From a bacterium (GTDB lineage: Bacteria > Armatimonadota > Zipacnadia > Zipacnadales > Zipacnadaceae), in the NCBI GenBank assembly GCA_030615605.1, contig JAUWYY010000005.1, forward strand, positions 43,682 to 107,681: a stretch of DNA of 64,000 nt, in the 5' to 3' direction. The translations under genes and the position numbers were made by a program. Below, in pieces: positions 2,945 through 32,947 of the stretch (its first letter is position 1; every line of letters starts with the position of its first letter). Under the pieces are notes generated by a model, which saw only the letters and a program-made list of their open reading frames with translations, was not told the origin of the DNA and did not search any database.

Positions 2945-3025
2945 ATCTATCTATGACCCTGGCTGGGGCCGGTGATTCACCGGCTGCTTGGAGACGAGGA
3001 GGTGATCCTGGTGCCGCAGGAGACG

Positions 3026-5704
3026 ATGTTTTCGATTATCCTCGCGGGGGGACGAGGAACACGGATGCGATCAGATTCCACCCATAAGGTCTGTTTTGAG
3101 GTGGGAGGCGTCCCAGTTATCTTACGAGCACTCCAGACCTATGAAGAGTGTGGAATAGACCACCACATAATCGTGGTGGGTGAGCTTGGTGAACAGGTTG
3201 TTTCCACTGTGGGAGACCATTTCACCAATGTGTCATTTGTCTACCAGCCAGTGCCTCTGGGTACGGGAGATGCCGCCAGGTGTGGAGCGCGTGGGCTGGC
3301 GGCGGCCGGCTACGAGGGCCTGGTTCTCGTGGTAGCGGGAGACCGGTTGCTTGCTCCGCGTGCTGTGAAAAAGTTGGTAGAAACGTGGCGCGAGTCCGGA
3401 AGCGACGGGGCATTCCTTGTTAGTCACAAGGAAGACAATCCCTTTTCTGGGAGGGTTGTATGCGACGACTCGGGGCGAGTTGCCGGTATTGTTGAAGCCA
3501 GCGAGATTGCGCTTTCGGAGGTTGTCAGCGCTCTGCAGAGGCACAGATACGGAAACGGCCAACACCTGGCATGCACTCCACTTCTGGAAGAGATTCACGC
3601 ACGTTTTCCGAACCCGGACAAGGCTGCTACGGCTTGCGGCAAACTGTACTCTGCCTTGGCAAGCCAGGATAGTGTCGCCAGTGCGGACTTGGGCGACCTC
3701 ATTGAACCTCTACGCGAAATGACCAGTCTGCAACTGTGGCTGAACAACGAGCCAACGCTTCTGCCCGCCTACGAGGCGGAGGAAATGACTTCTGAGGTGA
3801 ACCTCTCAGCCTATCTGTTTCCTGCTCCAGTATTGTTTGAAGGGCTTCGGGGTTTGACGACGGACAACGCACAGGGCGAAGAATTCCTGACCGACTGCGT
3901 AAACAGTCTTGCTGCAGCCCGCGACGATGGCGGACACCCCAGATACAGAATAACTACTGTGCTGGTAGATGAGCCTGACGATGCCCTGGCGTACAACACT
4001 CCTGGGGAACTGGCGGCAGTCGAGCGAAGGCTGCGTGCAGAACAGAGCGAGACCATTAAGATAGTCGAACGGCCCAAGTTCCTGCACGAACGGAGCCTGC
4101 GATCGGTCGCCCAGTGGCATACCTTGTTCGCCACCAATGCGCCAGAAGTCGAGGAGTTCATGAGCGATACTTATGGCCCCTCCGAAGAGGTACGGGAGAA
4201 GAAGCGGCAGGAGTATCTGGAGGCTCTGGAATGCTATGGTCGCCATCATGACTTCGATGAGCAGGTCTTCATTGTGCGGTCCCCCGGGCGCATTAATCTG
4301 TTGGGACGGCACGTTGACCACCGCGGAGGGCGGATTAACGTAGTAGCCATCAATGACGAGATTATCATGGTTGCTTCGCCCCGCGAGGATGACGTGATTG
4401 AGCTTCGTAACAGTGATGCGGAGGCCTTCCGGCCGGCTTCATTTTCTATCAGTCAAGAGGTCGCGAATCTAGACTGGGGGGACTGGCTGACCTGTGTCAA
4501 CAGCCCTAAGACCCTGGCTATGGTCAGTAATGGCCACTGGGAGAACTATGTGAAGGCAGCCGTGCTCCGCCTCCAGGAACGTTTCCGCGAGGTGCCTCTG
4601 CAGGGCCTGAAGGCGGTCACGCATGGTAGTATTCCCATAGGCTCGGGGCTCAGTTCCTCCTCGGCAGTGGTCGTGGCAGCTGCCGAAGCCATGGTCGCTC
4701 GCAACAACCTGCCTGTCCATGCCAATCTCCTGGTAGACCTATGCGGCGAGGGCGAATGGTTCGTGGGAACCCGAGGAGGCAGCGGGGACCACGCAGCCAT
4801 CAAGTTTGGGCGGCGCAGTCAGGTGGCTCACGTCGGCTTCTTCCCCTTTGAAGTCAAGGAATTCCTACCCTTCTTTGATGACCATTGTGTGGTGGTGTGT
4901 AACTCAGGCATAGAAGCCAGGAAGAGCGAACAAGCCAGGGCAACCTTTAACCGAAAAGTCCTGGGGTATGTGGCTGGCGAGATAATATTCAAGCAGCTCT
5001 TTCCCGCCTTTGCTCCGTCCATTCATCACTTGCGCGATATCTCTTGCCAAAACCTGGGCATCGAACTCGAAGACCTATACCGAATGCTCAAGCAACTGCC
5101 TCTTCGACTGACTCGGCAGGAACTGTTTGAGCAGTACGGGCCCTTTGATCCCTCCAGTAGCGAAAAACTTCGGAACCTCCTGTCTGGTATTCCCGAAGGT
5201 GACGACGCCTTTGAGGTCCGGGGTGTGATGCTTTTCGGCATAGCCGAATGCGACCGAAGCCGCAGGTGCGTGGAATACCTCCGACGCGGAGACGCTGAGG
5301 GCTTTGGCGAGTTATGGTACATATCGCATGATGGCGACCGAGTTGTGGCATACGATTCACAACTGCAGCCGCAGCCGTGGGACTATGAAGTGGATGATAG
5401 TTATCTGGATGCACTCATCGCCGACCTACAGAGCGGCGAGGCGGGCCGGGTGCAGAGGGCTCAGCTTCATAGACAGCCCGGTAAGTACGCCTGCAGCACC
5501 CCAGAAACTGACATGATTGTGGACATAGCCCGCAGGATACCGGGAGTCAAGGGGGCGCAGCTAGCCGGTGCGGGTCTGGGCGGATGCGTGATGGTGCTGG
5601 TGGAGGAACAAAGCTGTGACGAGTTGTTAGAGGCCCTTGAGTCTCATGACTTCGAGACAAAGCGATACTATCCTCCTGAAGGAGCTGGGCTCGTCATTGT
5701 GTAG
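3026..5704 (+). CDS. Bifunctional sugar-1-phosphate nucleotidylyltransferase (N-terminal) / galactokinase-like GHMP sugar-1-kinase (C-terminal)
   Basis: N-terminus MFSIILAGGRGTRM is the G-G-x-G-T-R NTP-transferase signature. C-terminal half carries the galactokinase signature GRINLLGRHVDHRGG and GHMP ATP-binding motif PIGSGLSSSSAVVVA. Start set at the ATG preceding the GGRGTR motif, with AGGAG 4 nt upstream. The longest ORF starts at 2972. Confidence 0.7.
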   Translation: MFSIILAGGRGTRMRSDSTHKVCFEVGGVPVILRALQTYEECGIDHHIIVVGELGEQVVSTVGDHFTNVSFVYQPVPLGTGDAARCGARGLAAAGYEGLVLVVAGDRLLAPRAVKKLVETWRESGSDGAFLVSHKEDNPFSGRVVCDDSGRVAGIVEASEIALSEVVSALQRHRYGNGQHLACTPLLEEIHARFPNPDKAATACGKLYSALASQDSVASADLGDLIEPLREMTSLQLWLNNEPTLLPAYEAEEMTSEVNLSAYLFPAPVLFEGLRGLTTDNAQGEEFLTDCVNSLAAARDDGGHPRYRITTVLVDEPDDALAYNTPGELAAVERRLRAEQSETIKIVERPKFLHERSLRSVAQWHTLFATNAPEVEEFMSDTYGPSEEVREKKRQEYLEALECYGRHHDFDEQVFIVRSPGRINLLGRHVDHRGGRINVVAINDEIIMVASPREDDVIELRNSDAEAFRPASFSISQEVANLDWGDWLTCVNSPKTLAMVSNGHWENYVKAAVLRLQERFREVPLQGLKAVTHGSIPIGSGLSSSSAVVVAAAEAMVARNNLPVHANLLVDLCGEGEWFVGTRGGSGDHAAIKFGRRSQVAHVGFFPFEVKEFLPFFDDHCVVVCNSGIEARKSEQARATFNRKVLGYVAGEIIFKQLFPAFAPSIHHLRDISCQNLGIELEDLYRMLKQLPLRLTRQELFEQYGPFDPSSSEKLRNLLSGIPEGDDAFEVRGVMLFGIAECDRSRRCVEYLRRGDAEGFGELWYISHDGDRVVAYDSQLQPQPWDYEVDDSYLDALIADLQSGEAGRVQRAQLHRQPGKYACSTPETDMIVDIARRIPGVKGAQLAGAGLGGCVMVLVEEQSCDELLEALESHDFETKRYYPPEGAGLVIV

Positions 5705-7318: not shown

Positions 7319-7347
7319 TTGACAAACAGAGAAGATTTTGCTATACT
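7319..7347 (+). promoter_or_regulatory. Consensus sigma70 promoter TTGACA-17-TATACT
   Basis: TTGACA at 7319-7324, exact 17-nt spacer, TATACT at 7342-7347. Lies in non-coding DNA. Confidence 0.5.
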
Positions 7348-7469
7348 ACAGACAAATTAGGCACCGGAGTTACAGCATTATGGCCGACCGCAGGCGACGG
7401 GGGGAGCTTGCTATCGAAGAGAAGACCTGACGATTCACGTTGATGTGTTTGATCGAGTAACAGACACAG

Positions 7470-7520
7470 CCACCGGTGTATTGACCGCAGAAGTTTGTGC
7501 GGACCGGTGGTTGTTTTGAT
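7470..7520 (+). terminator. Intrinsic terminator-like hairpin + T-tract
   Basis: CCACCGGTG...GACCGCA-gaagttt-TGCGGACCGGTGG stem followed by TTGTTTTGATT. About 125 nt downstream of the predicted TSS of the 7319 promoter. Confidence 0.45.
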
Positions 7521-7546
7521 TGGGGGGGTAAGACAAGGAGAGGGCG

Positions 7547-7591
7547 AAACCAAAAACAGGAAAGGGCCGAGGAGGTGTCGCTCCTCGGCCC
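7547..7591 (-). terminator. Intrinsic terminator (minus strand)
   Basis: Perfect 10-bp stem GGCCGAGGAG/CTCCTCGGCC with a 6-nt loop. On the minus strand it is followed by TTTCCTGTTTTTGGTTTC. Confidence 0.45.
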
Positions 7592-8018
7592 CAGGACAGA
7601 CTAAAACCCTGGCTCGGGCTTAGTGCTGCCGCTTGGTTAGCATTATAGCATATCGCCGCCACCGTTGTCAAGCCAGTCTCTCGGCGGCATGCAGCACCCC
7701 CGAGTACCCAACGGTTCACTTCTGTCTTACCCCCCTTATGGGTTCGCCAAACGCATAGGTGGCTCTGGCGGATCAATACCTGAAGACTTCGGTGGCTTGC
7801 ATCTTAACTGGAAGACACGCGCCGTACATTGGGGGAGAGAGGTTGCTGCACGAAAACATCCAGGAGGTGCCGCTCCTCTGTCCAGGATGTATCCAAGGCC
7901 CTGGTTCGGGGGGATACAGTGAACCGGACTCTCTCCCCCAATACTCATACATATCGCGGTGTCACGGACTGTCCGAAGTGACTTTGGGCACATCACCGGG
8001 GGTTGTGCTGGGAGGTGA

Positions 8019-9101
8019 ATGAAGATGGTGATCCAGAAGTGGGTTGGGGCACGGGTTGGCTTGATGGGCAACCCCTCAGACGGCTTCGGTGGCAAGACGA
8101 TTGCCTGTATGGTCCGCAACTTCGGGGCGCAGGCAATCTTGAGAGAAAGCAGTACCGTGGAGATTGTGCGGCATCCCATATACGATCCACTCTCTTTCAG
8201 CAGCTTGGAGCATCTGGAGGAGACGGCCGCGCACGATGGCTATTACGGCGGAATACGGTTGCTCTACGCCACTTGCAGCAAGTTTCATCACTACTGCCGA
8301 GAGCGCGGAATACATGTGCCTGACCGCAACTTCGCGCTGCAGTATGACACGAACATTCCTCGTCAAGTTGGCCTGGGAGGCTCGAGTGCCATTATTGCCG
8401 CGGTCCTTAAGGCACTAATGGAGTTTTATGAGCTCTCTGAGGATGACATTCCCAGGCCGGAGCAACCCAACTTGATTCTAGCGGTGGAGACCGACCAACT
8501 CGGCATTGCGGCGGGCTTGCAGGATCGTGTAGCCCAGACCTACGGCGGCCTTGTATACATGGATTTCGCTCCAGAATACATGGAAACGCACGGGCACGGT
8601 TATTATGAATACCTGGACATGGCTGAGCTACCCCCCATGTATCTCGCTTACAGTTGGGAGCCTTCCTATTCGGGGAAGATGCACAACATAGCGCGGCACC
8701 GTTTTAACCAGGGCGACAAGGAGGTCATCGAGGCAGTTCGACGCTGGGCTGCCTATACAGATCAGGCCCGAGAGGCCATTGCGGACAAAGACTGGCGCAC
8801 ATTTTCCGTGTTGATGGATATGAACTTCGATCTGCGCCAGCGGGTGTACGGAGCCGAACACTTGGGCCGGGGCAACCTGGAAATGATCAACCTGGCCCGG
8901 AAACATGGCCTGCCCGCGAAGTTCGCAGGCTCGGGCGGAGCCGTCGTCGGCTTCTGCGAGGACCGTAGCTCGCTACGCAAGGCCGAGCAATCATTCTCTG
9001 AGCATGGGTACGGATTTGCGGTGCTGGAACCGGCTGATTACGAAAGTATCAATGACGCAGTGGAAGCTGGCGTCCCAAACGGCTCGCGAGTCTACGTTTG
9101 A
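8019..9101 (+). CDS. Glucuronokinase-like GHMP sugar-1-kinase (plant GlcAK homolog)
   Basis: ARVGLMGNPSDGFGGKTIA, DGYYGGIRLLYATCSKF, YDTNIPRQVGLGGSSAIIAAVLKAL, GIAAGLQDRVAQTYGGLVYMDF and FAGSGGAVVGFC closely track remembered Arabidopsis glucuronokinase motifs. Strong RBS GGGAGGTGA upstream. Confidence 0.8.
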   Translation: MKMVIQKWVGARVGLMGNPSDGFGGKTIACMVRNFGAQAILRESSTVEIVRHPIYDPLSFSSLEHLEETAAHDGYYGGIRLLYATCSKFHHYCRERGIHVPDRNFALQYDTNIPRQVGLGGSSAIIAAVLKALMEFYELSEDDIPRPEQPNLILAVETDQLGIAAGLQDRVAQTYGGLVYMDFAPEYMETHGHGYYEYLDMAELPPMYLAYSWEPSYSGKMHNIARHRFNQGDKEVIEAVRRWAAYTDQAREAIADKDWRTFSVLMDMNFDLRQRVYGAEHLGRGNLEMINLARKHGLPAKFAGSGGAVVGFCEDRSSLRKAEQSFSEHGYGFAVLEPADYESINDAVEAGVPNGSRVYV

Positions 9102-9260
9102 GAGCCGGTATGCTGGTGACCGTATGCGAGCGTGAGATATGCCGTGTACAGCTTATGACGAACACGCGCAGAGTCAACCTGCTACCGAGCCCAACGGAGC
9201 AGCAATATCGCTATCGGCTGTCCGACAAAGCCTGCCCTGCGGGGGGGAGGCGTCACAGAC

Positions 9261-9962
9261 ATGGCCCAAACAGTAGTCGTTGAAAGAACCGAAGAAGATT
9301 CACGGGTAAGCGTCCAAGACGCGGCTGTCCAGCCTATCATTGCAGCCGACGATGTCATCGCACGGCCTCGAGGGTACGGAAGGGCCAAGCGAGTGACGGA
9401 TGTGTTCGCAGCAGCAGCAGGACTCATTGTAACTCTACCCTTGTGGGTGCTTACTGCCCTCCTCATAAAGCTCAGCAGCCGCGGGCCCGTTCTGTTCCGC
9501 CAAGAAAGGCCAGGCAAAGACGGTAAGCCATTCCGGATGCTCAAATTCCGTACTATGGTGCACGATGCAGAAAAAAGACTGCACGAAGTCATTGATATTG
9601 AGGACACTGCTGATCCGCTGATAAGGCTGAAAGACGACCCCAGGGTCACGGGAGTAGGACATCTGCTGCGGGTAACCAGTATTGACGAGCTACCGCAACT
9701 CATCAATGTCTTGCGAGGCGAAATGAGTCTCGTCGGGCCCCGCCCAATCTCCCGACCCTTGCGGGACCCGCGCAATGCGCTTCGGCTCAAAGTCACACCA
9801 GGGATAACTGGCCTCTGGCAGATCTCGGGACGAAAGAACCACAACACAGATTATATGCTCGAGAAAGATATGGAGTACTTGCAGCGGCGTTCGCTCGGCT
9901 TTGACCTACTATTGCTGTTGAAGACTGTGGTCGCCGTCATCAAGGCTGATGGCGCCAGATAG
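9261..9962 (+). CDS. Polyprenyl-phosphate sugar-1-phosphate transferase (bacterial sugar transferase, PglC/WbaP C-terminal domain type)
   Basis: KRVTDVFAAAAGLIVTLPLWVLTALLI TM helix, RPGKDGKPFRMLKFRTM, LPQLINVLRGEMSLVGPRP. These are classic PF02397 motifs. Confidence 0.9.
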   Translation: MAQTVVVERTEEDSRVSVQDAAVQPIIAADDVIARPRGYGRAKRVTDVFAAAAGLIVTLPLWVLTALLIKLSSRGPVLFRQERPGKDGKPFRMLKFRTMVHDAEKRLHEVIDIEDTADPLIRLKDDPRVTGVGHLLRVTSIDELPQLINVLRGEMSLVGPRPISRPLRDPRNALRLKVTPGITGLWQISGRKNHNTDYMLEKDMEYLQRRSLGFDLLLLLKTVVAVIKADGAR

Positions 9963-10623
9963 AAGACATACTGTGAAGACTGAAGAGACCAAAGCTATAA
10001 TTTCAAAACGGCGATGGATGCAAGCCGTAGTGTTGGTAGCCTTGATTGCCACAATGAGCATCGGCTGGCATGAACGGAGAGAGGTATCTGCGGCAGATAT
10101 TCCTCTGGCGCAATTGCCGCAGGAGCTTAGGGGATGGCAGACCGTGCAGGAAGAAGTAAGTCTGTCGGAGGGTGGCGCTTACAGACTGCTCGAGCGCACG
10201 TACGAAAATGGTGACGGATACAGGCTGCACATGACAGTTCAGGCTACGCATACCCGTCTCGGGAGTTTGCGCGATTGGTCGCTGTCGAGTATGGCGGAGG
10301 GTTGGTCAGTCGAGGACGAATCCATTTGGAGCAGCGCTCGGGAATCTGCTGTACGGGCACGGATACAGAGATTGGTCAAGGGCGCGCGTTCCCGGGTAGC
10401 TCTGACCTGGTACACTTCAGCTGAATCTCACGCACCGACCTTGCAGTCGGCTACCTTGAAGGCCTGGCGCGACCGGCTGCTCGGTGGCAAGAAGCCGTGG
10501 GCAAGCTTGTACATGGTAGCGGAGACGACGTCGGACACTGCGGCCGAAGACTCCGTAACGGACTTAGCACAACAGTTGGGGCCTGAGCTGCAACAATTGA
10601 TGTCCGAACTGGGACCGCAGTGA
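9949..10623 (+). CDS. epsI: Exosortase-associated EpsI-family protein
   Basis: N-terminal TM helix followed by LPQELRGW...YRLLERTYENGDGYRLHMTVQ...AEGWSV...RVALTWYTSAES, matching the EpsI pattern (L.GW...L..dyl.RtY.n..g..v.l.vaY......GW.....valYWY). Overlaps the upstream stop by 14 nt. Confidence 0.7.
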   Translation: MAPDRRHTVKTEETKAIISKRRWMQAVVLVALIATMSIGWHERREVSAADIPLAQLPQELRGWQTVQEEVSLSEGGAYRLLERTYENGDGYRLHMTVQATHTRLGSLRDWSLSSMAEGWSVEDESIWSSARESAVRARIQRLVKGARSRVALTWYTSAESHAPTLQSATLKAWRDRLLGGKKPWASLYMVAETTSDTAAEDSVTDLAQQLGPELQQLMSELGPQ

Positions 10624-10685
10624 TAAGGACAGCAAAGTCTTGGGCCGGTTAGCAGCAAGAGTTTCGCACAAGTGAGGCACACCAG

Positions 10686-12392
10686 ATGGCTGTAGACGAG
10701 ACGTCTCAGACCGCACAAAACGCTCGCAGGTCGCACCAGGCGCGAGCCCGCGCTCGGCATCGGGACTTGACTGAAAGGCTCAACGTGTTCGCCAAGGCGG
10801 TTGGCCTGGGCGTGTTGATCGTTCTCATAGGCATAGGCGCCTTTGGGCGATTCTATTCCATTCGGTTTAATGGCCTGGCATCCGCAGACGCTATGGATGC
10901 TGGCCAGATAGCTGAACAGCTACGATATGGGCGCGGTCTATCAACCCGAGTGATCCGTCCTCTTGCACTATCATATGCTGGAGTAAACGAGGACGGCGTA
11001 ATGCCGGAGATGCTGCACGCGCCTTTGTATCCGTTGTTACTGTCCTGGCTATTCAAGGTCCGGGGGGGGGGAGACGCCTCAGTAGTCATGTTTAATGGCC
11101 TGGCCTTCTTACTCACTGGTTGGGTGCTGTATGCCATAGCAAGAAGACTCTGGGAAAAGACCACAGGAGTAGTGGTCGTAATCTTATATTTCGTCAGTGT
11201 GGAGGCATTGGGTAACGTCTTGACTGCCTCCGGAGCATCACTGACTGGGTTGTTGATCACGCTCGCAATATGGGCGGCCTTGCGCCAGCGCGAGACATTG
11301 GAGGCTATCCAAGAACAGAGTCAAGGGCTTACAGACCGTCGGTGGTTTATCGGGCCGGCAATAGTAGGGGGCCTATTTGGGCTAACTTATCTGGCTGGTC
11401 TCGCTTCTTTACTGTTGGTGCTCCCCTTAGCTTTCCTGGCCATCACCCGGGCCCGCCGCCTGCAACAAGCTGCAGTCATGGCAATTGTCGCGCTCGTGGT
11501 GATGGTGCCGTGGTTTGTACACAACTTAGCGGCAACTCACACCCTGTTCCCGGCTTTGTCCACCTACAAACTTCTGACGTACACCGACACTTATCCCGAT
11601 AATTCGGTGTTTCAACAGCTACCCGGCCAGGTGCCATCACCGGCTTCATTCATAGTTGCTCACCCCGGAGAGTTGGTGAAGAAAGTAGCGTGGGGCCTCA
11701 CTCGCCTGTACCGTCCGGTTGCTCGATTGGTTAGCCCATACCTGTTTCCCTTCTTTCTGCTTGGCGGATTGTGGTTCGGGGCCGCCAGTCCAAGGCGAGC
11801 CCTATGGCGAACGGTAATGGCAATGTTGGCCATTCAGGTTCTCACTATCTGCCTATATGAACACAACCTAGAGGCAATTATGCTCTTCACGCCCATAGTG
11901 CTATGCTTGGCCGCTGGAGGTGGTCTGCAAGCCTTGCGGGGCACCGGGGCTTCCCGGCTCTCTCAGGGTCTGGTAATAGGAGCCGTTTTCGCTGTGGTCC
12001 TATTCCCTACTGTAGGCTCCATGGTACTGGGAGGAAGAGTGGAGATAGACCGGTCGGCTGCCAGCCTGGGCCTACTCCGCAAGGGTCTGACGAGCGATGC
12101 GGTGATCGCTACGGACAAAGCGCCGGCAGTGGCTTGGTCCGCAAGTAAGCAAGCAGTGCTACTGCCTAGCAAACCTGAGGACCTGAGAGTGCTGGAAGAG
12201 CAAGGCATCACGGTCGACTACGTCTACTTCTCTCACAAAGTTTTAGGGCCAGAAATTCGGCCCTACTTCCAGCCCTGGCGAAGCGAAAAGGCCGCCGAGT
12301 ATCTGGGCAAACCGTTAGCCATTGGCTACGGAGAAATGCTTTTCGAGCGAAATGACAAGAGAGCCGTAGGAGATGTTGGCTCAACTGGCTAG
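10686..12392 (+). CDS. GT-C fold membrane glycosyltransferase, ArnT/PMT (GT39/GT83)-like
   Basis: About 11 predicted TM helices in the N-terminal two-thirds. A D/E-containing first periplasmic loop (SADAMDAGQIAEQLRYGRG) resembles ArnT/PMT. The C-terminal soluble domain is about 130 aa. Contains a G10 tract. Confidence 0.5.
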   Translation: MAVDETSQTAQNARRSHQARARARHRDLTERLNVFAKAVGLGVLIVLIGIGAFGRFYSIRFNGLASADAMDAGQIAEQLRYGRGLSTRVIRPLALSYAGVNEDGVMPEMLHAPLYPLLLSWLFKVRGGGDASVVMFNGLAFLLTGWVLYAIARRLWEKTTGVVVVILYFVSVEALGNVLTASGASLTGLLITLAIWAALRQRETLEAIQEQSQGLTDRRWFIGPAIVGGLFGLTYLAGLASLLLVLPLAFLAITRARRLQQAAVMAIVALVVMVPWFVHNLAATHTLFPALSTYKLLTYTDTYPDNSVFQQLPGQVPSPASFIVAHPGELVKKVAWGLTRLYRPVARLVSPYLFPFFLLGGLWFGAASPRRALWRTVMAMLAIQVLTICLYEHNLEAIMLFTPIVLCLAAGGGLQALRGTGASRLSQGLVIGAVFAVVLFPTVGSMVLGGRVEIDRSAASLGLLRKGLTSDAVIATDKAPAVAWSASKQAVLLPSKPEDLRVLEEQGITVDYVYFSHKVLGPEIRPYFQPWRSEKAAEYLGKPLAIGYGEMLFERNDKRAVGDVGSTG

Positions 12393-12516
12393 GGTTGCAA
12401 TGAGAGCTACACAAAGGCCGTACGGTTCTTCTCGCGGCGTTGTATGTCGCGGGAGCAACCTTCATCACCGCGGTGAGCAAAGTTGTGCACAACTGACAGA
12501 AAGGAGGTGAGGACTT

Positions 12517-13131
12517 ATGAGACGGTTTAGTATAATGAGCTTCGCCTGCGTAGTCGTACTAGTTGCGCTGGCGGCGGGTACGGGGTACCCCATTATCATC
12601 GAGAACGACACGTACTACTGGCCCCCGGGGACCGTTGAGGGTACCTGTGACCTGAAGGTCGAGGAGGACGTCTACTACATCGACTACGAGCTCTCCGACC
12701 CGGCTGATGCCCTAAATTGGGTGTACTTGACGCCGGGTGACCCAGACGGCAAGTACCTGTACCGATACACCGTTACTCGGGTGAATTGGACCGAGGGTGT
12801 TACGGAGTGGGGCTACGCCATGCCCGGAATTGGGTTTGAGTACGCCAATTCGCCGGTGGGCTGGGCCCCCGGTGGCCCCGCAGGTACTGACGTGGGCTGG
12901 TATGACACGGATGTCGACCCAAACGGGCCCATCGTCGACGCCCTGGATAGCTTCATGATCTGGTCTGACGCCGCGCCGTTCGTCCTGTACGCCGGCACGG
13001 CCACAGGCACCGATGAAGGCACCGTGACTGGAGAGGTCTCCGGGCCGACGCCGGAGCCGATCACCATGGCTCTGCTGGCGCTCGGTCTGCCGCTGGGGCT
13101 CCTCGCTAGCCGACGCAGGAAAGAAGACTGA
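12517..13131 (+). CDS. PEP-CTERM sorting-signal protein (exosortase substrate)
   Basis: N-terminal signal peptide MRRFSIMSFACVVVLVALAAG. C-terminus is PTPEPITMALLALGLPLGLLASRRRKED, i.e. PEP + TM helix + Arg-rich tail. Strong RBS AAGGAGGTGA. Confidence 0.8.
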   Translation: MRRFSIMSFACVVVLVALAAGTGYPIIIENDTYYWPPGTVEGTCDLKVEEDVYYIDYELSDPADALNWVYLTPGDPDGKYLYRYTVTRVNWTEGVTEWGYAMPGIGFEYANSPVGWAPGGPAGTDVGWYDTDVDPNGPIVDALDSFMIWSDAAPFVLYAGTATGTDEGTVTGEVSGPTPEPITMALLALGLPLGLLASRRRKED

Positions 13132-13196
13132 TCTCTTAGCTGAGATATAGTCTTGGGTGCCGTCTGGTTGCCCCGGCGGCACCCAACGTATTCTAC

Positions 13197-14282
13197 ATGT
13201 GCGATGTTGCATGGGAGCACAGACTGTTCGAGTTCTGTAAGCTGTATACGATGAAGATACCCGATTATATCAAGCAAAACCGCCTGGCAATTGCCTGGGC
13301 AGGCGCAGTGGCAGTACTGCTCGTGGGGATGTACTGGGAAGCCGGCTCAGTGTTTGTCAGACGCTGGCTCGGCGAATCCGCATACTACCACTGCATGGCG
13401 GTGCCCGCCATTGCCGGCTGGCTGCTGTGGCGGCGCTGGGAGCGTGTGGTGGACGCCGAGCGAAAGACGTGGTTGCTAGGTTTCGTGCTGCTGGGCTTTG
13501 GGTTGCTTATGTACCTGGGATACGCACGAACCGGTGTGCGTATGGCCGCCGGGGTAGCGTTTCCTGTCATCCTGGCGGGCATCGTGGGCGCCGTCTATGG
13601 TCGCCGGCTGTTGAAGATTACGGCTGTGCCTATTGGCTTGCTGATCTTCGCAGTTCCCTTTCCGGAGCACGCTATTGGCATGGTTGCCATGCCCATGCAG
13701 AAGATTTCGGCTGTTATTACGGGAAAAGTAGCGCCTCTGCTGGGCCTGCAGGTGGTGCAACAGGGCATCAACCTGGATCTGCATGGATTTAGTTTCGTGG
13801 TCGCCGAGGAATGCAGTGGCATGCATTCTCTGGTGGCTTTGCTACTTACTGGAGTGGTGCTGGTCGAACTGTCGCAACTTCACAAATACCGTAAAGTCAT
13901 CTCTATTGCAGTCATTCTGCCTATCGTATTGCTGGCGAACGTAGTGCGACTCACTGTAGTGCTCTTGCTCGCCGAGTACTTTGGTCCCGAGCTAGCCCTG
14001 GGTGCGATGGTGCATGGCTTCTCGGACATCATAGTCTACCTTGCAGCGATGCTCGGTTTCATTCTGTTTATTGGCTGGCTGTATGAACATCAGACCAAGC
14101 CACAATCTGGAGACATGCCGTCGTCACCCCCTAGGGCTCCAGGGGGACTTGTGGTTCATGTTCCCGACGAACTGCTGGGTTACTACGAAGTAGCGAAAGC
14201 TGGCGCTTCTCAGCTCGGCGAAGAGCTGGTAGGGAGTAGCCGGTCGGGCGCGAAGAGTCAGACCGAGGAGGCCCGGCAATGA
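13197..14282 (+). CDS. Exosortase (Xrt/EpsH family transmembrane transpeptidase)
   Basis: Polytopic membrane protein with the exosortase active-site motif VVAEECSGMHSL (conserved Cys). Alternative start at 13251 (MKIPDY). Sits next to a PEP-CTERM gene and near EpsI. Confidence 0.85.
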   Translation: MCDVAWEHRLFEFCKLYTMKIPDYIKQNRLAIAWAGAVAVLLVGMYWEAGSVFVRRWLGESAYYHCMAVPAIAGWLLWRRWERVVDAERKTWLLGFVLLGFGLLMYLGYARTGVRMAAGVAFPVILAGIVGAVYGRRLLKITAVPIGLLIFAVPFPEHAIGMVAMPMQKISAVITGKVAPLLGLQVVQQGINLDLHGFSFVVAEECSGMHSLVALLLTGVVLVELSQLHKYRKVISIAVILPIVLLANVVRLTVVLLLAEYFGPELALGAMVHGFSDIIVYLAAMLGFILFIGWLYEHQTKPQSGDMPSSPPRAPGGLVVHVPDELLGYYEVAKAGASQLGEELVGSSRSGAKSQTEEARQ

Positions 14283-15442
14283 AGATCGCCATGCTGGGTG
14301 TCAAGGCAGTCCCTTGTGCGGGTGGGATCGCAGCGTATGCCGAGCAACTCGGCAAGCGACTTGTGGAGCGAGGCCATGAGGTAACGGTCTACTGCCGCCG
14401 CCAGTATCTTGACGGCGACGCTGGTTCTTCAGCTCTTCGGCCACATAACGGACTGAGGCGCAGAGCCACACCGGGACTACGCGGCAAGTACCTGGATGCC
14501 GTCACCCACACTTTCACCGCCGCGCTCGATTCACTGTGGCAGGACTACGATATCATTCATATTCACGGCTCTGCCCCAGCAGTGGTGGCACCGTTGCTGC
14601 GATTGCGTCCCGGCCGCCGCTTGGTTGTCACGATTCATGGTGTGGACTGGCAGGGAGGCAAATGGGGTCCCTTGGCGACGGGGGGCATGAGAATTGCAGC
14701 AAACACGCCAGTTCGGTTTGCCCACGAACTCACTGTAGTCTCCCAGGGTCTGCAACAATTCTACCGGGACAACTTCGGACGAGAGACGACCTACATACCG
14801 ACCGGGGTTGAGCTGCCCGAAATCCTGCCCCCGCGTGAGATCAGGGACACGTGGAATCTGGATACTGACGACTACTTGCTCTTTGTAGGCCGCCTCACGC
14901 CGGAAAAAGGCCTGCAATACCTGCTATCAGCCTATGAGACCCTTGATACTGAGAAGAAACTGGTGATAGTTGGAGACGCTAACTTCAAGGATTCCTATGT
15001 AGACGATTTGAGAAAGCTCGCGACGGATGATGTGATATTCACTGGCTATCGCAAGGGTCGTACTCTTACGGAGCTTTTCTCGAACGCATATCTGTACGTA
15101 CAGCCCTCAACATTGGAGGGCATATCGGTGGCTGTGCTTGAGGCCCTCAGTTACGGCCGTTGTGTGTTGGCCAGTGATATTCCGGGCAACCAGGAAGTCC
15201 TAGGAGAATGCGGCCATACCTTCCAGGCGGGCAATGTAGACGACCTGCGCCGCAAGCTAGCGATGCTCGTGGATGATCCGGACTTAGTCGCAGCTCAGTA
15301 CGGCGCAGCCAGAGACTATGTACGCTACGAGCACAACTGGGAGACGACCACTGACCAATTTGAGGGGCTCTACCGTCGGGTAGTAGGCGAAGACCTAAGG
15401 GATGTGACGAGTAAGAGTGCCGTAACAGCGAAGGTAGAATAG
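14279..15442 (+). CDS. Glycosyltransferase family 4
   Basis: MKIAMLG...GGIAAYAEQLGKRL N-terminal GT-B domain. EGISVAVLEALSYGRCVLASDIPGNQEV motif. ATGA overlap with the exosortase stop. Confidence 0.85.
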   Translation: MKIAMLGVKAVPCAGGIAAYAEQLGKRLVERGHEVTVYCRRQYLDGDAGSSALRPHNGLRRRATPGLRGKYLDAVTHTFTAALDSLWQDYDIIHIHGSAPAVVAPLLRLRPGRRLVVTIHGVDWQGGKWGPLATGGMRIAANTPVRFAHELTVVSQGLQQFYRDNFGRETTYIPTGVELPEILPPREIRDTWNLDTDDYLLFVGRLTPEKGLQYLLSAYETLDTEKKLVIVGDANFKDSYVDDLRKLATDDVIFTGYRKGRTLTELFSNAYLYVQPSTLEGISVAVLEALSYGRCVLASDIPGNQEVLGECGHTFQAGNVDDLRRKLAMLVDDPDLVAAQYGAARDYVRYEHNWETTTDQFEGLYRRVVGEDLRDVTSKSAVTAKVE

Positions 15443-15489
15443 GATCAAACGCTGCCCGGACGGGGACCGGGATCCGGAGGTGTTCAGTC

Positions 15490-16860
15490 GTGAGAATATC
15501 GGTCATAGGCGCGGGGTACGTAGGTTTAGTGCTGGGAAGCTGTATGGCAGAGAGCGGGGTGGATGTCGAGCTGATAGATATTGACCACGGTCGCGTCCGC
15601 CTTCTGAACAAGGGAATGGTCCCCCTGCACGAGCCTGGACTAAAGGAATTGCTTGTATCCAACCTGGAGGCGGGCGGTATTGCGTTTACTGCCTCTTATC
15701 CCAAAGGACTGCGTGGTGCGCAGGTCGCCTTTGTGGCGGTGGGCACTCCTCCGTTGCAAGACGGAGGTGCAGACCTCAGCGGTGTCAAGGCAGCCGCCGC
15801 AGAAGTTGCCCGCTATGCTGCTGCTGATTTAGTTTTGGCGATTAAGAGCACAGTCCCGGTGGGGACTGCATCGCAAGTTCGACAGCTACTCGCCGATGAG
15901 GGGCGCACCGACATCGAAGTCATCTCTAACCCCGAATTTCTCCGCGAAGGCCGAGCAGTTGAAGACTTCCTCCATCCTGACCGTGTGGTAATCGGGACCA
16001 ACTCCGCAGAAGCTGCCCGGCTTATGAAGTCTCTATATCGGCGCTTCTTGGATTCTGACATCCCTGTTATGGTCATGGACAATGCCTCGGCCGAGATGAC
16101 CAAATATGCCTCCAACGCTTTTCTGGCTACCCGGATATCATTTGTCAATGAAATAGCCAACATTTGCGAGCACGTGGAGGCAAATGTTGACGATGTGGTT
16201 CGAGCCATGGGCGCAGACCGGCGCATAGGTAGCCATTATCTATATCCTGGTTGTGGCTACGGCGGATCGTGTTTCCCTAAGGACGTACAAGCCCTTATCA
16301 ATATGGCCAATGGTAACCGATATGCAGCCAGTCTGCTTTCTTCTGTTCACCAGACCAATATTAACCAGAAGCGGCGGTTGGGTGAGAAGATCGCTGACTA
16401 CTTTGCCGGTACGCTGCGGGGCCGGATGATCGGCGTGTGGGGACTGTCGTTCAAAGAAAACACTGATGATGTTCGTGAATCGCCGAGTTTAACACTAATA
16501 GACTACCTAGTTGGAAAAGGTGCTCGTGTTCAGGTATTTGATCCTGCCTCGCTGCACCGCGTACCCGATATCTTCCCCGATGGCGTGACTGCATGCCGCG
16601 ATCAATATGACGCCGTACGCGATGCGGACGCCCTTGCAGTGGTAACGCCGTGGGAACAGTTCCGCAGCCCCGATTGGGAACGAGTGAAATCGCTGCTGAA
16701 ACATCCTGCAGTGTTCGACGGCCGCAACCTCTATGATCCTGATCAGTTGATGGATATGGGCTTCGCTTACGATGGCTTCGGTCGCCCCAATGGACATCAA
16801 ATTCGACCTGTGTTACAGGATAGCGATCTCGTAGATACTCAGCTCATCACTCAAGGATAG
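15490..16860 (+). CDS. ugd: UDP-glucose 6-dehydrogenase
   Basis: GTG start after GGAGGTG. MRISVIGAGYVGLV Rossmann motif. Catalytic GYGGSCFPKD motif. Confidence 0.9.
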   Translation: MRISVIGAGYVGLVLGSCMAESGVDVELIDIDHGRVRLLNKGMVPLHEPGLKELLVSNLEAGGIAFTASYPKGLRGAQVAFVAVGTPPLQDGGADLSGVKAAAAEVARYAAADLVLAIKSTVPVGTASQVRQLLADEGRTDIEVISNPEFLREGRAVEDFLHPDRVVIGTNSAEAARLMKSLYRRFLDSDIPVMVMDNASAEMTKYASNAFLATRISFVNEIANICEHVEANVDDVVRAMGADRRIGSHYLYPGCGYGGSCFPKDVQALINMANGNRYAASLLSSVHQTNINQKRRLGEKIADYFAGTLRGRMIGVWGLSFKENTDDVRESPSLTLIDYLVGKGARVQVFDPASLHRVPDIFPDGVTACRDQYDAVRDADALAVVTPWEQFRSPDWERVKSLLKHPAVFDGRNLYDPDQLMDMGFAYDGFGRPNGHQIRPVLQDSDLVDTQLITQG

Positions 16861-17037
16861 TCGGGGCATCTATGCGAGTGCCGTGTTTGGATGGTAAAAC
16901 TAATGCTAAGAGTCGTCAGAAGAAGAATACTGTCAGACTTGGGGGAGTACTGACGAGGCTATCGTGACTTGGTGAGTTAGCACCTTTTGGAATGTGGGAA
17001 CCAAGTCCCAATAGCCGAGAATGGAGGATATGGTGCG

Positions 17038-18369
17038 ATGAAATTGATTTCGAGATTGAAGAATCGGGACGCGCAGATCGGTGTCATTGGCCTCGGTTAC
17101 GTGGGACTCCCCCTGGCCATGGAGTTTGCCAAAGCGGGATTCCAGGTGCACGGAGTGGACACCAGTGAAGAAGTCGTAAGACGAGTTAAGGAGTGCTGCC
17201 CCGCGTGCAAGGATGTCTCTCCGGAACTGCTAGCCAAACTGATTGCAGCCGGGCGTTTTGAACCTACGACTGACTACGATGCATTGCGGGATTGCGACGC
17301 AATATGCATTTGTGTGCCGACACCTCTTGCCGCCGATCGAGAACCGGATCTCTCGTTCGTGGAGTCCGCCTCGCGGGAAATTGCGGCCCGTCTCCGCGCT
17401 GACCAACTGGTAGTGCTGGAGAGTACAAGTTACCCTGGGACGACTGCCGAGGTTGTGCTGCCCATCCTGAGTAGCAATGGTCTCGCTGTCGGACAGGACT
17501 TTTTCCTGGGCTACTCGCCGGAGCGTGTGGACCCCGGTAATAAGACGTACACGGTCAAGAATACACCCAGATTGGTTGCCGGCATAACGCCCCCATGCTT
17601 GGAGGCTACCGTCACCCTTTACTCCCAAATAGTAGACCAGGTGGTGGAGGTCTCCAGCCCGGCGGCTGCCGAGATGGCCAAGCTCTTGGAGAACACGTTC
17701 CGTGCTGTGAATATTGCCCTGGTAAACGAAGTAGCGTTGCTCTGCGACCGGCTCGGCTTGAACGTGTGGGAGATCATTGAGGCAGCGGCGACTAAGCCCT
17801 TTGGCTTCATGAAATTCACTCCTGGTCCTGGTGTCGGCGGCCATTGCATCCCCGTGGACCCGCACTACCTGTCCTGGAAGGCCCGGCAGCACGGCTTTAA
17901 TACCAGGCTTGTGGACGTAGCGACTCAGGTAAACGCACAAATGCCAGAGCATGTTACACATAAGGTGGCCGCGGCTCTCAGCGAGCACGGAATACCCATT
18001 GACCAGGCCAGCGTCCTGATACTAGGAGTGGCCTATAAGCCTGATGTCGGGGATGTCCGGGAAACGCCGGCTGCCGGCATAATCGAGGGATTGGCACAAA
18101 AGGGTGCAAAAGTGACCTACCATGATCCCTTCGTGCCTGAGTTTTCGGCGAATGGCTACAGAATGCACTCTCAACAGATGACCGAGGAATTGTTGGCCAG
18201 TTCGGATTGTGTTGTTTTGGTGACCAACCACTCAGCATATTCCCACGGGAGGATAGCTGAGAAAGCGAAAATACTGATCGACACACGAAACTCGGTCAAG
18301 AGCTGCAATGGGCGGACGACCGAGAACGTCATCTCGATGTATGAGGTAACTGGGCAAGGGCAGGGGTAA
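17038..18369 (+). CDS. UDP-N-acetyl-D-glucosamine / -mannosamine 6-dehydrogenase (WbpA/WecC/TviB family)
   Basis: IGVIGLGYVGLPLA Rossmann motif. GVGGHCIPVDP catalytic-Cys motif typical of UDP-HexNAc dehydrogenases. Start at MKLISRLK after GGAGGA. The longest ORF starts at 16987. Confidence 0.85.
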   Translation: MKLISRLKNRDAQIGVIGLGYVGLPLAMEFAKAGFQVHGVDTSEEVVRRVKECCPACKDVSPELLAKLIAAGRFEPTTDYDALRDCDAICICVPTPLAADREPDLSFVESASREIAARLRADQLVVLESTSYPGTTAEVVLPILSSNGLAVGQDFFLGYSPERVDPGNKTYTVKNTPRLVAGITPPCLEATVTLYSQIVDQVVEVSSPAAAEMAKLLENTFRAVNIALVNEVALLCDRLGLNVWEIIEAAATKPFGFMKFTPGPGVGGHCIPVDPHYLSWKARQHGFNTRLVDVATQVNAQMPEHVTHKVAAALSEHGIPIDQASVLILGVAYKPDVGDVRETPAAGIIEGLAQKGAKVTYHDPFVPEFSANGYRMHSQQMTEELLASSDCVVLVTNHSAYSHGRIAEKAKILIDTRNSVKSCNGRTTENVISMYEVTGQGQG

Positions 18370-22200: not shown

Positions 22201-23049
22201 AGCGGGGTGGGGACCTCGCTCTTGCCCGGGGAGGGCATCTGGGTGTGCGCCGTGGAAAGCGGGACCTTGATCGTTGAGCCACCCATGGGCACCTCAGCAC
22301 AAGCTGCCCAGCAGCAGGAAGAGCCACAGCATGACGGTTGGACGATTCCGATAGTGGCACGGGCCGCTGGCTGCGCTGACTTGTCATCTCTGGCTGGCGT
22401 TACCGGGACCGAAGTGAGCTGGCAAGTATACAATCCTCCTTCGGTGCCGGATAGCGTGGATGTCTATTTCGTGAGTACTGGCGATCGCCGGTTGGCGCAC
22501 GATCTCAGGCCGGGCATCAGCGGCAGCTTTAGCTGGGACTTCGTGGTATCTACTGATATTCGTGATGCTGAGGTTGCTGTGTCACTGCCTGATTTGAGCC
22601 GGGTTCCGGCTGATCTGTCGCTCATACTCGAGGATAGAGACGTCTCACGGGCGATGTACGCCCGCACGATGACCAGTTACATGTTTCGGAGCAACAACGA
22701 TGGTCCCACCGAGCGACATTTCCGGCTCAGCGTTGCTCCTCCCAACGACCGGGGCTTGGTGATCTCTACGGCCTCGGCCCACGCAGCAGGTAGCGTAGTG
22801 AGATTGGCCTATTCAGTCAGCAGGCCCTGCAGCGTAAGTATAATAGTCCTCAACATAGCAGGGAGGTTGATCGACAGACTCTGCACCGACCGAGTGGTGT
22901 CGGAGGGGACCAACATGCATACTTGGGACCTGCGCAGCCAAGGCGGGAGCCGGGTACCCGGTGGCTTCTACCTGGTATCAATTGAGGCCAAAGCCGAGAA
23001 CGGCCAGCGCGTACGCAGTATCGTTCCCGCTACAGTCATGCTGCGATAG
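19228..23049 (+). CDS. Large secreted multi-domain protein: right-handed beta-helix (pectate-lyase-like) N-terminal region, three CarboxypepD_reg-like repeats, FlgD-Ig/T9SS-type C-terminal domain
   Basis: Signal peptide. DGDNLNPGT...GDTIFLRGGTYS and repeated NN/NC/HD beta-helix turns. Three repeats GTYTIQGLPAGTYTVTPxLAxYGF. C-terminal ~90 aa (VSIIVLNIAGRLIDRL...HTWDLRSQGGSRVPGGFYLVSIEAKAENGQRVRSIVPATVMLR) matches the Por/T9SS CTD / FlgD-Ig pattern. Confidence 0.7.
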   Translation: MRRPLPHRNDSYLLILVLATACFLIPTALADAATYYVATDGDNLNPGTIELPWADLYKPREVVGPGDTIFLRGGTYSPELDRAWSFHHVSGTAALPITLRNYPGEHVVFDNKVGEDYMTRTILETRSHYVVQGFEFVHNDVYGIAAADAQNVVIRNCVFHDGNPAIAGDFIKFQRSHNMLVEHCEFYGVCAGNALDTTHSQVEFRYNYIHDWVPVISGQATTIYNKGESYDSKFHHNVWKNCPAPGTSGWANYSGYTVVLGESVGAGNPDTYDCNRPEFYNNIIYGSDWWAVCMWDCVDAKIYNNTFVVEDTQSSWTRGVILVRSNSHNTTIKNNIMISRRPGWAVFICMANDTSDQGFVSDNNLFYATAGTPCFAWKPLIAKYPHQDPLPITLEEWQAISGQDEHSTVADPLFLSLPGNDFHLTQDSPAIDAGVYELGVPSDDFDGNPRPYGDAIDIGAYEYTGAGGGNEAPVLAWAGESGYESDGLDPETGTAATDFTWKIEYSDPDDDAPYGVYLHVLEDGTELGDSPHDMTAEESGDWSAGVVFAKALTLPKGNDYTYYFSAADEHGAQTSYPATPLAGPQVNNSPPSTPTVTISPESPTDQDELQATAEGSIDIDEGDEISYQYQWYCDDVLQEDLTEATVLATRTSVGEAWGCEVVATDGQDDSEAGSAEVTVTTAYSISGTMLGTDGNPVADVNVTAGGDSATTAADGTYTIQGLPAGTYTVTPSLAEYGFDPGSQEVTVNETQGDASAVDFTASQEIYSISGIVTSGGSGLQGVQVAANGHSTATAADGRYTIQGLIAGTYTVTPALAGYGFAPESAEISVGSGEGSATGVDFVGGSIFTLTVPAGLSLIGVPCTPLGDSSPGSLFGDAPVVVRWDPIALQYVASDPGAGPTTEEFLAVAPSKGYFVYMSEAQELRIAGEPAGTATPFAGVALSPGWNMVANPFNEELPFANFLTHTTNIRPYGFAYDWEANSYRVVIAEAGISGVGTSLLPGEGIWVCAVESGTLIVEPPMGTSAQAAQQQEEPQHDGWTIPIVARAAGCADLSSLAGVTGTEVSWQVYNPPSVPDSVDVYFVSTGDRRLAHDLRPGISGSFSWDFVVSTDIRDAEVAVSLPDLSRVPADLSLILEDRDVSRAMYARTMTSYMFRSNNDGPTERHFRLSVAPPNDRGLVISTASAHAAGSVVRLAYSVSRPCSVSIIVLNIAGRLIDRLCTDRVVSEGTNMHTWDLRSQGGSRVPGGFYLVSIEAKAENGQRVRSIVPATVMLR

Positions 23050-32935: not shown

Positions 32936-32947
32936 TTTCTGTTCTCC

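Follow-up and report, generated by a model that had tools for sequence, protein, structure and literature searches.

In a polysaccharide locus of an Armatimonadota bacterium, we identified a polytopic GT-C glycosyltransferase that is a dedicated and conserved partner of the exosortase-EpsI pair, as seen in its genomic linkage. Positions 9949-14282 of the 64-kb stretch of DNA analysed here (the window) hold four co-directional genes on the + strand, of which the first encodes EpsI, the second a polytopic membrane protein of 568 aa, the third a single PEP-CTERM protein and the fourth an exosortase. This cassette is flanked by a priming sugar transferase (PGT) upstream of EpsI and by a GT4 glycosyltransferase downstream of the exosortase (Table 1). 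A preliminary description of this DNA had given the order as EpsI, GT-C, PEP-CTERM protein, exosortase and GT4 in one direction, and all five genes indeed follow one another on the + strand at the coordinates listed in Table 1. No convincing internal terminator was found within the cassette. The hexamers and the transcript start of the predicted promoter upstream are kept in three related loci (L005, L016 and L006), and, judged from its sequence, this promoter would give rise to a leader of ~660 nt ahead of the cassette. A candidate small RNA lies at 7552-7638 on the - strand.

Table 1. Features of the exosortase cassette and its surroundings in the window.
Feature	Position	Strand	Evidence or spacing
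Predicted sigma-70-type promoter, conserved	7319..7347	+	11/12 consensus positions and TG motif
GHMP-family sugar kinase, first cassette gene	8019..9101	+	Pfam GHMP_kinases_N and GHMP_kinases_C match
Small polyprenyl-phosphate glycosylphosphotransferase (PGT, Bac_transf)	9261..9962	+	PF02397, 209 bits; position conserved
PGT/EpsI junction			overlap of 14 nt
EpsI-family exosortase partner, one N-terminal TM helix	9949..10623	+	PF11984/DUF3485, 50.2 vs cutoff 26.1
EpsI/GT-C junction			gap of 62 nt
GT-C fold (ArnT/PMT/STT3-like) polytopic glycosyltransferase, 568 aa	10686..12392	+	PMT_2, 28.8 vs 26.1, marginal
GT-C/PEP-CTERM junction			gap of 124 nt
PEP-CTERM cargo, 204 aa	12517..13131	+	TIGR02595, 21.5 vs 16
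PEP-CTERM/exosortase junction			gap of 65 nt
Exosortase (EpsH 8-TM family), unnamed subtype	13197..14282	+	TIGR02602, 122.4 vs 105.55; PF09721, 169.3 vs 25.7
Exosortase/GT4 junction			overlap of 4 nt
GT4 glycosyltransferase, translationally coupled to exosortase gene	14279..15442	+	Pfam Glycos_transf_1 and Glyco_transf_4
Two nucleotide-sugar dehydrogenases (UDP-Glc 6-DH-like; UDP-ManNAc/TviB-like)	15490..18369	+	TIGR03026, 438 and 448 bits

The phylogenomic link between GT-C and the exosortase is well supported: the association, on which the preliminary description had staked its reading, proved strong. In Armatimonadota-type loci with enough flank, the order EpsI-GT-C-PEP-CTERM-exosortase is constant, with an exosortase in 9/9, a PEP-CTERM gene in 10/10 and EpsI in 15/15 distinct loci, in each of which it lies directly upstream of GT-C; GT-C identity among these linked loci is 35-66%. 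The GT-C gene had been described as inserted between EpsI and the cargo gene, which is misleading. The order PGT-EpsI-GT-C-PEP-CTERM-exosortase is the same in every related Armatimonadota locus with sufficient flank, and the arrangement is ancestral to the clade and no local insertion. Moreover, GT-C relatives of only 23-29% identity have an exosortase or an exosortase-EpsI fusion as their direct neighbour in three further gene orders, namely an exosortase-EpsI fusion followed by GT-C (L029, L030, L034, L035 and L048), PGT-GT-C-exosortase (L031, L032 and L038-40) and a divergent GT-C/exosortase pair (L028). PGT is absent from the available sequence of L028, L030 and L048 (in L028 and L048, the full 10 kb to either side), the loci in which its absence could be judged, L029 and L034/35 being too short. 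Thus, the exosortase is the invariant neighbour of GT-C in the fusion-type and divergent loci.

A word-indexed profile search recovered only a 26-member GT-C clade, and the wider family became visible by exhaustive HMMER search. A metagenome scan with a single distant GT-C relative (P0091) as query yielded 80 loci with 12 exosortase matches, all of which belong to the linked half of the tree, whereas the ~55 distal loci gave none. No exosortase was detected within 10 kb of GT-C in the whole distal branch, nor in three sub-branches of the linked half (L026/27, L033 and L036/43/44/56/78/103). Distal GT-C genes have a sigma-54 two-component system on one side and dxs on the other. The regulators beside them were considered as PrsK/PrsR and turned out to be of the generic NtrC/AtoC type (395, below the PrsR cutoff of 502.6); therefore, no PEP-CTERM link is claimed for the distal branch. 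Fusions of GT-C with an exosortase were not present among the 250 proteins collected.

Subtype classification, a check proposed in the preliminary description, placed the window exosortase in no named subtype. It reaches no curated cutoff of XrtA, XrtB, XrtD, XrtW or the other Xrt models, the best scores being those for XrtA (144.6, cutoff 208) and XrtW (134.8, cutoff 425), and eight other GT-C-linked exosortases miss these cutoffs as well (0/9 tested pass, the window's included). Window-type exosortases form a sharply separate clade, in which identity falls from at least 55% to at most 37% at the boundary, and neither this clade nor the GT-C clade defined here bears a name in the curated models (NCBIfam release 20). 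In an alignment of 18 sequences including outgroups, the catalytic residues are conserved: Cys206 and Arg251 are invariant and His273 is nearly so. Orthologues with a length of 343 aa suggest that translation likely starts at M19 (13251). A hydrophilic C-terminal extension of ~60 aa, noted earlier, does exist (~65 aa, residues ~296-361), but it varies from 0 to ~90 aa among orthologues and its sequence is not conserved, so we rejected it as a meaningful feature. The partner protein EpsI scores 32 bits against TIGR02914, below the cutoff of 42.8.

The window GT-C has the transmembrane fold of the ArnT/PMT/STT3 class, followed by a small C-terminal alpha/beta periplasmic domain with its own conserved D-x-P-x3-AW motif. 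Its structure was modelled from 108 sequences, in place of a 23-sequence model of low quality (pLDDT 55.8). The protein shares only 10-14% identity with solved structures, and a profile search of PDB sequences with GT-C gave no sequence match. PMT_2 matches 62/80 wider-family members at E <= 0.001, and the window protein matches neither the ArnT equivalog model nor the PMT (PF02366) model. No STT3 or TIGR04154 match and no WWD were found in its sequence, so that its resemblance to STT3 is structural only. The possibility that it is a Wzy/O-antigen polymerase, raised in the preliminary description, was not borne out by HMM search, which gave no Wzy_C or TIGR03097 match, and its fold is not WaaL-like. 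An Asp or Glu occupies position 71, ~19 residues past TM1, in 83/86 sequences (22/23 exosortase-linked members and 61/63 unlinked relatives); by its conservation, this residue of the first extracytoplasmic loop is a candidate catalytic-type acidic residue. Several family members bear C-terminal TPR arrays, a layout known from the TMTC protein O-mannosyltransferases, and by analogy these relatives hint at a protein acceptor. The GT-C_A fold class, however, also includes enzymes whose acceptors are lipids (ArnT) or glycans (ALG, Aft and Emb), and thus the fold does not by itself decide the acceptor.

The cargo protein carries a signal peptide, a YxYxYTV motif and a GPTPEP-TM-RRRKED tail, and ends in ...GPTPEPITMALLALGLPLGLLASRRRKED. 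A pattern scan found no other credible PEP-CTERM tail in the window. A 90-aa antisense ORF (4546-4818) also came up; it lies inside the gene at 2972-5704, lacks the motif-TM-basic layout and was rejected as a chance match. The GPTPEP...RRRKED tail is kept in all neighbouring small genes, and one or two PEP-CTERM genes occupy the same position in all ten Armatimonadota-type loci that extend far enough. In L030, up to three PEP-CTERM genes adjoin the exosortase-EpsI fusion.

Genes for sugar metabolism surround the module. The GHMP kinase gene lies directly 5' of PGT in all window-clade and L020 loci with a long enough upstream flank; in the sister locus L024, the nearby GHMP kinase gene is divergent, on the opposite strand. 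PGT, which scores 252 bits against TIGR03025 (below the curated cutoff), is the sole lipid-sugar-forming enzyme at the locus, and its product would be a lipid-PP-linked first sugar. A GT4 gene also lies 3' of the exosortase gene in L002, L005, L006, L010 and L020. The dehydrogenase pair, which L005 carries as well, would supply uronic-acid precursors. The family scan, which covered the window except for ~20 ORFs of at least 150 aa beyond 44 kb, found no GT2 polyprenyl-phosphate sugar synthase; no flippase candidate was found in the window either, where no third protein reaches five predicted TM helices. As far as the locus shows, the donor pathway thus lacks components.

Since 2006, exosortases have been proposed to pass their PEP-CTERM cargo on to the polysaccharide matrix, and this cargo has been proposed to be glycosylated. 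To our knowledge, neither an acceptor of the exosortase reaction nor any cargo-glycosylating enzyme has been identified so far. The preliminary description called the link between glycosylation and exosortase processing long hypothesised and unproven, and the literature still treats PEP-CTERM glycosylation as a hypothesis (PMC12188702, PMC9850573, bioRxiv 10.1101/2023.06.07.544157). The presence of GT-C beside the exosortase through four gene orders provides a concrete candidate for the glycosylating enzyme. Our tentative but preferred reading is that GT-C glycosylates the PEP-CTERM cargo and replaces the Wzy_C-type “O-glycosylation ligase” of XrtA systems.

We infer a scheme for the glycan donor, its acceptor and the sequence of steps. 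In it, PGT and the GT4s would assemble a polyprenyl-phosphate-linked sugar or oligosaccharide at the cytoplasmic face, which would then be flipped across the membrane. The PEP-CTERM protein would be exported by Sec and remain tethered to the inner membrane through its C-terminal helix. GT-C, whose active site with the acidic residue 71 of the first loop is predicted to face the periplasm, would transfer the glycan from the lipid carrier to the tethered protein, and the exosortase with EpsI would finally cut at GPTPEP, such that the glycoprotein is released or re-anchored into the polysaccharide matrix. Ser and Thr make up 7-27% of the 30 residues before PEP in cassette-type PEP-CTERM proteins, and thus the classic Ser/Thr-rich linker behind the glycosylation hypothesis is absent here. 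Of the cargo-glycosylation reading in the preliminary description, the exosortase linkage of GT-C stands, whereas the specific chemistry, with the PEP-CTERM protein as the acceptor, finds no support here.

A wider proposal, which is possible although we lean against it, is that the GT-C clade is the missing glycan-transfer part of a sortase-like pathway. Together with exosortase-EpsI, it would attach PEP-CTERM proteins by a covalent bond to exopolysaccharide or a lipid-linked glycan, acting either as a new kind of protein O-oligosaccharyltransferase in bacteria, with the ArnT/PMT fold, or as the maker of the acceptor for transpeptidation by the exosortase. If this is true, the cassette is a compact machine producing matrix glycoconjugates. 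The conservation of GT-C in exosortase modules makes the old idea of glycosylated exosortase cargo directly testable, with a minimal module of ~6 kb that comprises PGT, EpsI, GT-C, one cargo protein and the exosortase.

Alternatively, GT-C may serve the pathway by polymerising or ligating the polysaccharide: it would replace Wzy in function and extend or transfer the lipid-linked repeat made by PGT and GT4s, so that its proximity to the exosortase reflects only a shared EPS operon. Besides GT-C and the exosortase, no protein in the window has at least five predicted TM helices, which leaves no Wzy or Wzx candidate there, and related loci show the same pattern in their ±10 kb flanks, with one extra such protein in L016. 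PGT lies immediately 5' of GT-C in two different gene orders, genes for Wza, a chain-length determinant and a Tyr-kinase lie upstream in L011 and L020, and a Wzy_C protein takes the place of GT-C in the outgroup XrtA locus. We nevertheless consider a polymerase role rather unlikely, because GT-C still abuts exosortase-EpsI in the PGT-less loci L028, L030 and L048 and because the TPR-fused relatives point toward protein partners. Additionally, the repeat-unit polymerases known to us belong to a structural class different from that of ArnT, PMT and STT3.

It is also conceivable, if distinctly improbable, that GT-C builds the acceptor of the exosortase by placing a sugar, possibly with a nucleophile, on a lipid or polysaccharide, and that the exosortase attaches the PEP-CTERM protein to this site after cleavage. 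We know of no acceptor for transpeptidation by an exosortase. Parallels exist in ArnT, which decorates lipid A, and in sortase, which uses lipid II, and exosortase and EpsI, but not the cargo genes, are the invariant neighbours of GT-C in some gene orders (no adjacent PEP-CTERM gene was detected in L031 and L038). Archaeosortase cargo becomes lipid-linked (PMC6098224). However, no amino-sugar pathway (aminotransferase) was seen at the window locus, the ArnT equivalog model does not match the window GT-C, and the proposal is wholly inferential. Finally, the absence of an exosortase from the distal branch and from three sub-branches of the linked half would fit a general envelope glycosyltransferase that hitch-hikes, without functional coupling, in EPS islands that also house exosortases, but this is very unlikely given that immediate adjacency is kept through four gene orders, down to 23% identity and in PGT-less loci, and that all exosortase matches from the P0091 scan (12/12) fall in the linked half.

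The cassette has its closest counterpart in the XrtA/PEP-CTERM exopolysaccharide system (Haft 2006, PMC1569441), of which it is a divergent relative. Both contain an exosortase with Cys/Arg/His, an EpsI-family protein, GT4s, a priming sugar transferase and cargo with a PEP-CTERM tail, and in both a polytopic enzyme that uses a lipid-linked glycan is embedded in the module. Related loci also encode Wza, a Tyr-kinase, a chain-length determinant and an amidotransferase of the Asn-synthase-like type, for which XrtA-system models are the best matches; the locus genes that best match the XrtA-system families TIGR03007, TIGR03018 and TIGR03108 all score under the cutoff. The XrtA system includes TIGR03097, which belongs to the Wzy_C family and is named [quoted passage not shown]. 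The nearest outgroup exosortase locus (L022) encodes a true XrtA (231, cutoff 208) together with a Wzy_C protein whose best match is TIGR03097, and has no GT-C. Unlike the XrtA system, the window has an exosortase that stays below the XrtA cutoff and belongs to a clade of its own, a separate EpsI gene upstream, and a polytopic enzyme of the GT-C_A fold (PMT_2/ArnT-like) with no Wzy_C protein in the window. The oligosaccharyl transferase associated with archaeosortase A (TIGR04154, STT3/AglB) is archaeal and contains a WWDYG motif, neither of which holds for the window GT-C, and the signal in that system is PGF-CTERM whereas that of the window cargo is PEP-CTERM. In contrast to ArnT (GT83) and to PMT/TMTC (GT39/GT105), the window GT-C has its place in an exosortase module and not in lipid A modification.

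A co-directional run of genes lies on the plus strand (8019-18369), and family scans agree with the call for every gene. From the priming transferase (PGT) to the GT4 gene the spacing is tight: PGT overlaps EpsI by 14 nt, the next three junctions leave 62, 124 and 65 nt, and the exosortase gene overlaps GT4 by 4 nt. No convincing internal terminator was found within the cassette. Together with the scans, these features confirm that the preliminary description was correct at its coordinates (9949-14282). EpsI scored above the Pfam PF11984 cutoff (50.2 versus 26.1) and under that of TIGR02914 (32 versus 42.8). The PEP-CTERM domain (TIGR02595, 21.5 versus 16) and the exosortase (TIGR02602, 122.4 versus 105.55) exceeded their cutoffs, and the 568-aa protein barely exceeded that of Pfam PMT_2 (28.8 versus 26.1).

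Features of the window, with strand and basis where available
Feature	Position	Strand	Basis
GHMP kinase	8019-9101	+	family scan
Small Bac_transf priming transferase (PGT)	9261-9962	+	family scan
EpsI	9949-10623	+	PF11984
568-aa polytopic membrane protein (GT-C)	10686-12392	+	PMT_2
204-aa PEP-CTERM protein	12517-13131	+	TIGR02595
Exosortase	13197-14282	+	TIGR02602
GT4	14279-15442	+	family scan
Two nucleotide-sugar dehydrogenases	15490-18369	+	family scan
Sugar-1-phosphate nucleotidyltransferase/galactokinase-like GHMP kinase fusion (910 aa)	2972-5704		
Conserved promoter, transcript start and predicted leader	7319-8018	+	
Candidate small RNA gene	7552-7638	-	
Promoter of the candidate small RNA gene	7671-7642	-	
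Secreted-type protein (1273 aa)	19228-23049		
Island	25617-37468		
Tyrosine-integrase genes	25617-26510, 36524-37468		
HerA-like	32948-34711	-	
SIR2-like	34708-36075	-	
Type IIG enzyme (1033 aa) and adjoining FGE-sulfatase-domain protein	39818-44022	-	

A word-indexed search returned 26 GT-C homologues (41-63% identity); those with a named source were all labelled Armatimonadota, the closest belonging to class Candidatus Zipacnadia. All fetched neighbourhoods read GHMP kinase-PGT-EpsI-GT-C, then one or two small genes, then the exosortase, and each small gene carries a near-identical C-terminal sorting signal (GPTPEPxxxALLxLGLPxxxxxRRRRKED). This order is kept in the sister-clade locus L024 (35% identity) and in L020 (labelled WS1), the locus of the most distant exosortase-clade member, which has genes for Wza, a chain-length determinant and a Tyr-kinase immediately upstream. 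In L023, EpsI lies upstream of GT-C and the contig ends thereafter. EpsI is directly upstream of GT-C in 15/15 distinct loci, and the exosortase is downstream in 9/9 loci with a long enough contig; the remaining six contigs stop no more than about 0.9 kb from GT-C. The GT-C was therefore not "inserted" into an exosortase module, as had been proposed, but belongs to a conserved one.

The linkage extends beyond this clade. A scan of metagenome contigs with P0091, a distant homologue 28% identical to the window GT-C, gave 80 loci (up to 10 kb each side; G+C 48 to 71%), in which exosortase, EpsI, PGT and GT-C genes were sought with local HMMs. An exosortase immediately adjoins GT-C in 12 of them; these GT-Cs share 23-29% identity with that of the window. 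Three other gene orders were seen: an exosortase-EpsI fusion followed by GT-C (L029, L030, L034, L035, L048), with PEP-CTERM genes adjacent wherever the contig is long enough; PGT-GT-C-exosortase...EpsI (L031, L032, L038-40); and a divergent pair (L028). No PGT was found in the available sequence of L028, L030 or L048 (L029 and L034/35 do not extend far enough to tell), and the invariant neighbour is thus the exosortase-EpsI pair rather than the priming enzyme. With 9/9 Armatimonadota-type loci and these three orders, the phylogenomic association is strong. In a neighbour-joining tree the exosortase-linked GT-Cs all fall in one half; no exosortase was found in the flanks of the other half (about 55 loci), nor within 10 kb in three branches of the linked half (L026/27, L033, L036/43/44/56/78/103). 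This distal unlinked branch (L036-L105; e.g. L037 7955-11303, L098 655-4654) has its own conserved context, namely a PAS histidine kinase, a sigma-54 response regulator, GT-C and DXP synthase (dxs), in that order. The regulator is upstream in 31/69 unlinked loci and dxs downstream in 27/69; these regulators score below the PrsR cutoff.

The 568-aa protein matched no PDB sequence and no NCBIfam equivalog. An exhaustive HMMER search gave 1941 cluster representatives at E ≤ 1e-3 (261 at E ≤ 1e-30). With 23 close homologues as input, AlphaFold gave a poor model (pLDDT 55.8); one on 108 family sequences drawn from that search reached pLDDT 93.4 and pTM 0.91. Its best 21 structure matches were all GT-C-type membrane proteins, including ArnT (24.1; 429 residues aligned), ALG12 (23.7), Pmt4 (23.5), AglB (21.1), STT3B (21.0), ALG9 (20.9) and AftA (19.8), with no WaaL or Wzy structure among them. 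Moreover, 62 of 80 family members scanned matched PMT_2 and none matched Wzy_C. HMM search therefore does not identify the protein as a Wzy/O-antigen polymerase, the result that would have counted against the preliminary interpretation. Of 86 aligned relatives, 83 retain an acidic residue at position 71, which lies in the first periplasmic loop, following a positively charged N-terminus and TM1. In the wider family, P0115, P0128, P0217, P0146 and P0179 carry long C-terminal TPR arrays behind the GT-C domain.

The window exosortase belongs to a clade of 31 proteins (≥55% identity, dropping sharply to ≤37% outside), with Cys and Arg invariant and His nearly so. Subtyping with Xrt models, a check proposed earlier, yielded no named subtype for any GT-C-linked exosortase scored, the window's best score being XrtA (144.6 versus a cutoff of 208). 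The hydrophilic C-terminal extension noted previously is present (~65 aa) and not conserved, ranging from 0 to ~90 residues among orthologues. The existence of 343-aa orthologues points to M19 (13251) as the probable real start.

Several other features were observed. The candidate small RNA gene (~85 nt) lies between a perfect TTGACA-18-TATAAT promoter and a strong intrinsic terminator. It occurs in ten copies across the window and the related loci L005, L006, L016 and L017 (2-3 per related locus), which keep both hexamers, transcript core and terminator, with a variable promoter spacer. No Rfam match appeared even at E ≤ 1, and the copies are too similar to one another to show compensatory pairs. 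A conserved plus-strand promoter (11/12 matches) would give the cassette mRNA a ~660-nt leader, itself without an Rfam match; as this leader runs antisense through the small RNA gene, the exosortase operon may be under cis-antisense or sibling-sRNA control. The 1273-aa protein has beta-helix, CarboxypepD_reg, choice-of-anchor Q and FlgD_ig-like domains and lacks a PEP-CTERM tail; since a homologue follows the cassette in L005, it may serve this locus as a matrix lyase or adhesin. The island between the integrases holds the SIR2-like/HerA-like pair and several ORFs without Pfam match, and over 26-36 kb the GC skew is positive and of unusual strength (0.21-0.29). The type IIG restriction-modification enzyme is Eco57I/MmeI-like.

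Five or more TM helices are predicted for just two proteins of the 64-kb window, the GT-C and the exosortase; the window thus contains no Wzx flippase or Wzy polymerase candidate. No GT2 polyprenyl-phosphate sugar synthase was seen among its family-scanned ORFs either; all three could lie upstream of its start. The 910-aa fusion and the second GHMP kinase suggest that an unusual NDP-sugar is made by salvage for the polymer.

PEP-CTERM glycosylation is still presented as a suggestion (PMC12188702, PMC9850573, bioRxiv 10.1101/2023.06.07.544157), and exosortase biochemistry is described as largely uncharacterised (PMC6098224). Within a partial set of the literature, no paper was found that connects PEP-CTERM systems with ArnT/GT-C enzymes, or Armatimonadota with exosortases.

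Taken together, the data show that exosortase-EpsI has a conserved partner of GT-C_A fold, whose candidate catalytic loop is intact. We tentatively prefer the reading that the GT-C would use a lipid-linked donor to glycosylate PEP-CTERM cargo still tethered to the membrane, either prior to cleavage by the exosortase or in the course of it. In its favour, the TPR-fused relatives share the architecture of TMTCs, which are eukaryotic protein O-mannosyltransferases, and curated models offer a single precedent for a GT-C linked to the sorting superfamily, the archaeosortase-associated oligosaccharyl transferase TIGR04154. Counting against it are the pre-PEP segments, which at 7-27% are not rich in Ser/Thr, and the fold, which cannot discriminate among protein, lipid and glycan acceptors. 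That the GT-C replaces Wzy as polymerase or ligase is rather unlikely. It is improbable that the GT-C constructs an acceptor that the exosortase uses. Functional uncoupling of the two, as the unlinked branches might suggest, is very improbable beside their recurrent adjacency. The interpretation first offered is partly supported: the association is strong, while the chemistry it implies is only putative. The cassette is a compact module open to testing.

The cassette and the XrtA EPS system are divergent relatives: other locus genes best match TIGR03007, TIGR03018 and TIGR03108, all under cutoffs. The nearest outgroup locus examined, L022, encodes a true XrtA (231 > 208) and a Wzy_C protein best matching TIGR03097, 'putative O-glycosylation ligase, exosortase A system-associated', and lacks a GT-C. 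In XrtA loci, a Wzy_C-type 'O-glycosylation ligase' holds the place taken here by the GT-C. Within a known kind of system, it includes an exosortase clade and an exosortase-associated GT-C clade, neither of which has been named.
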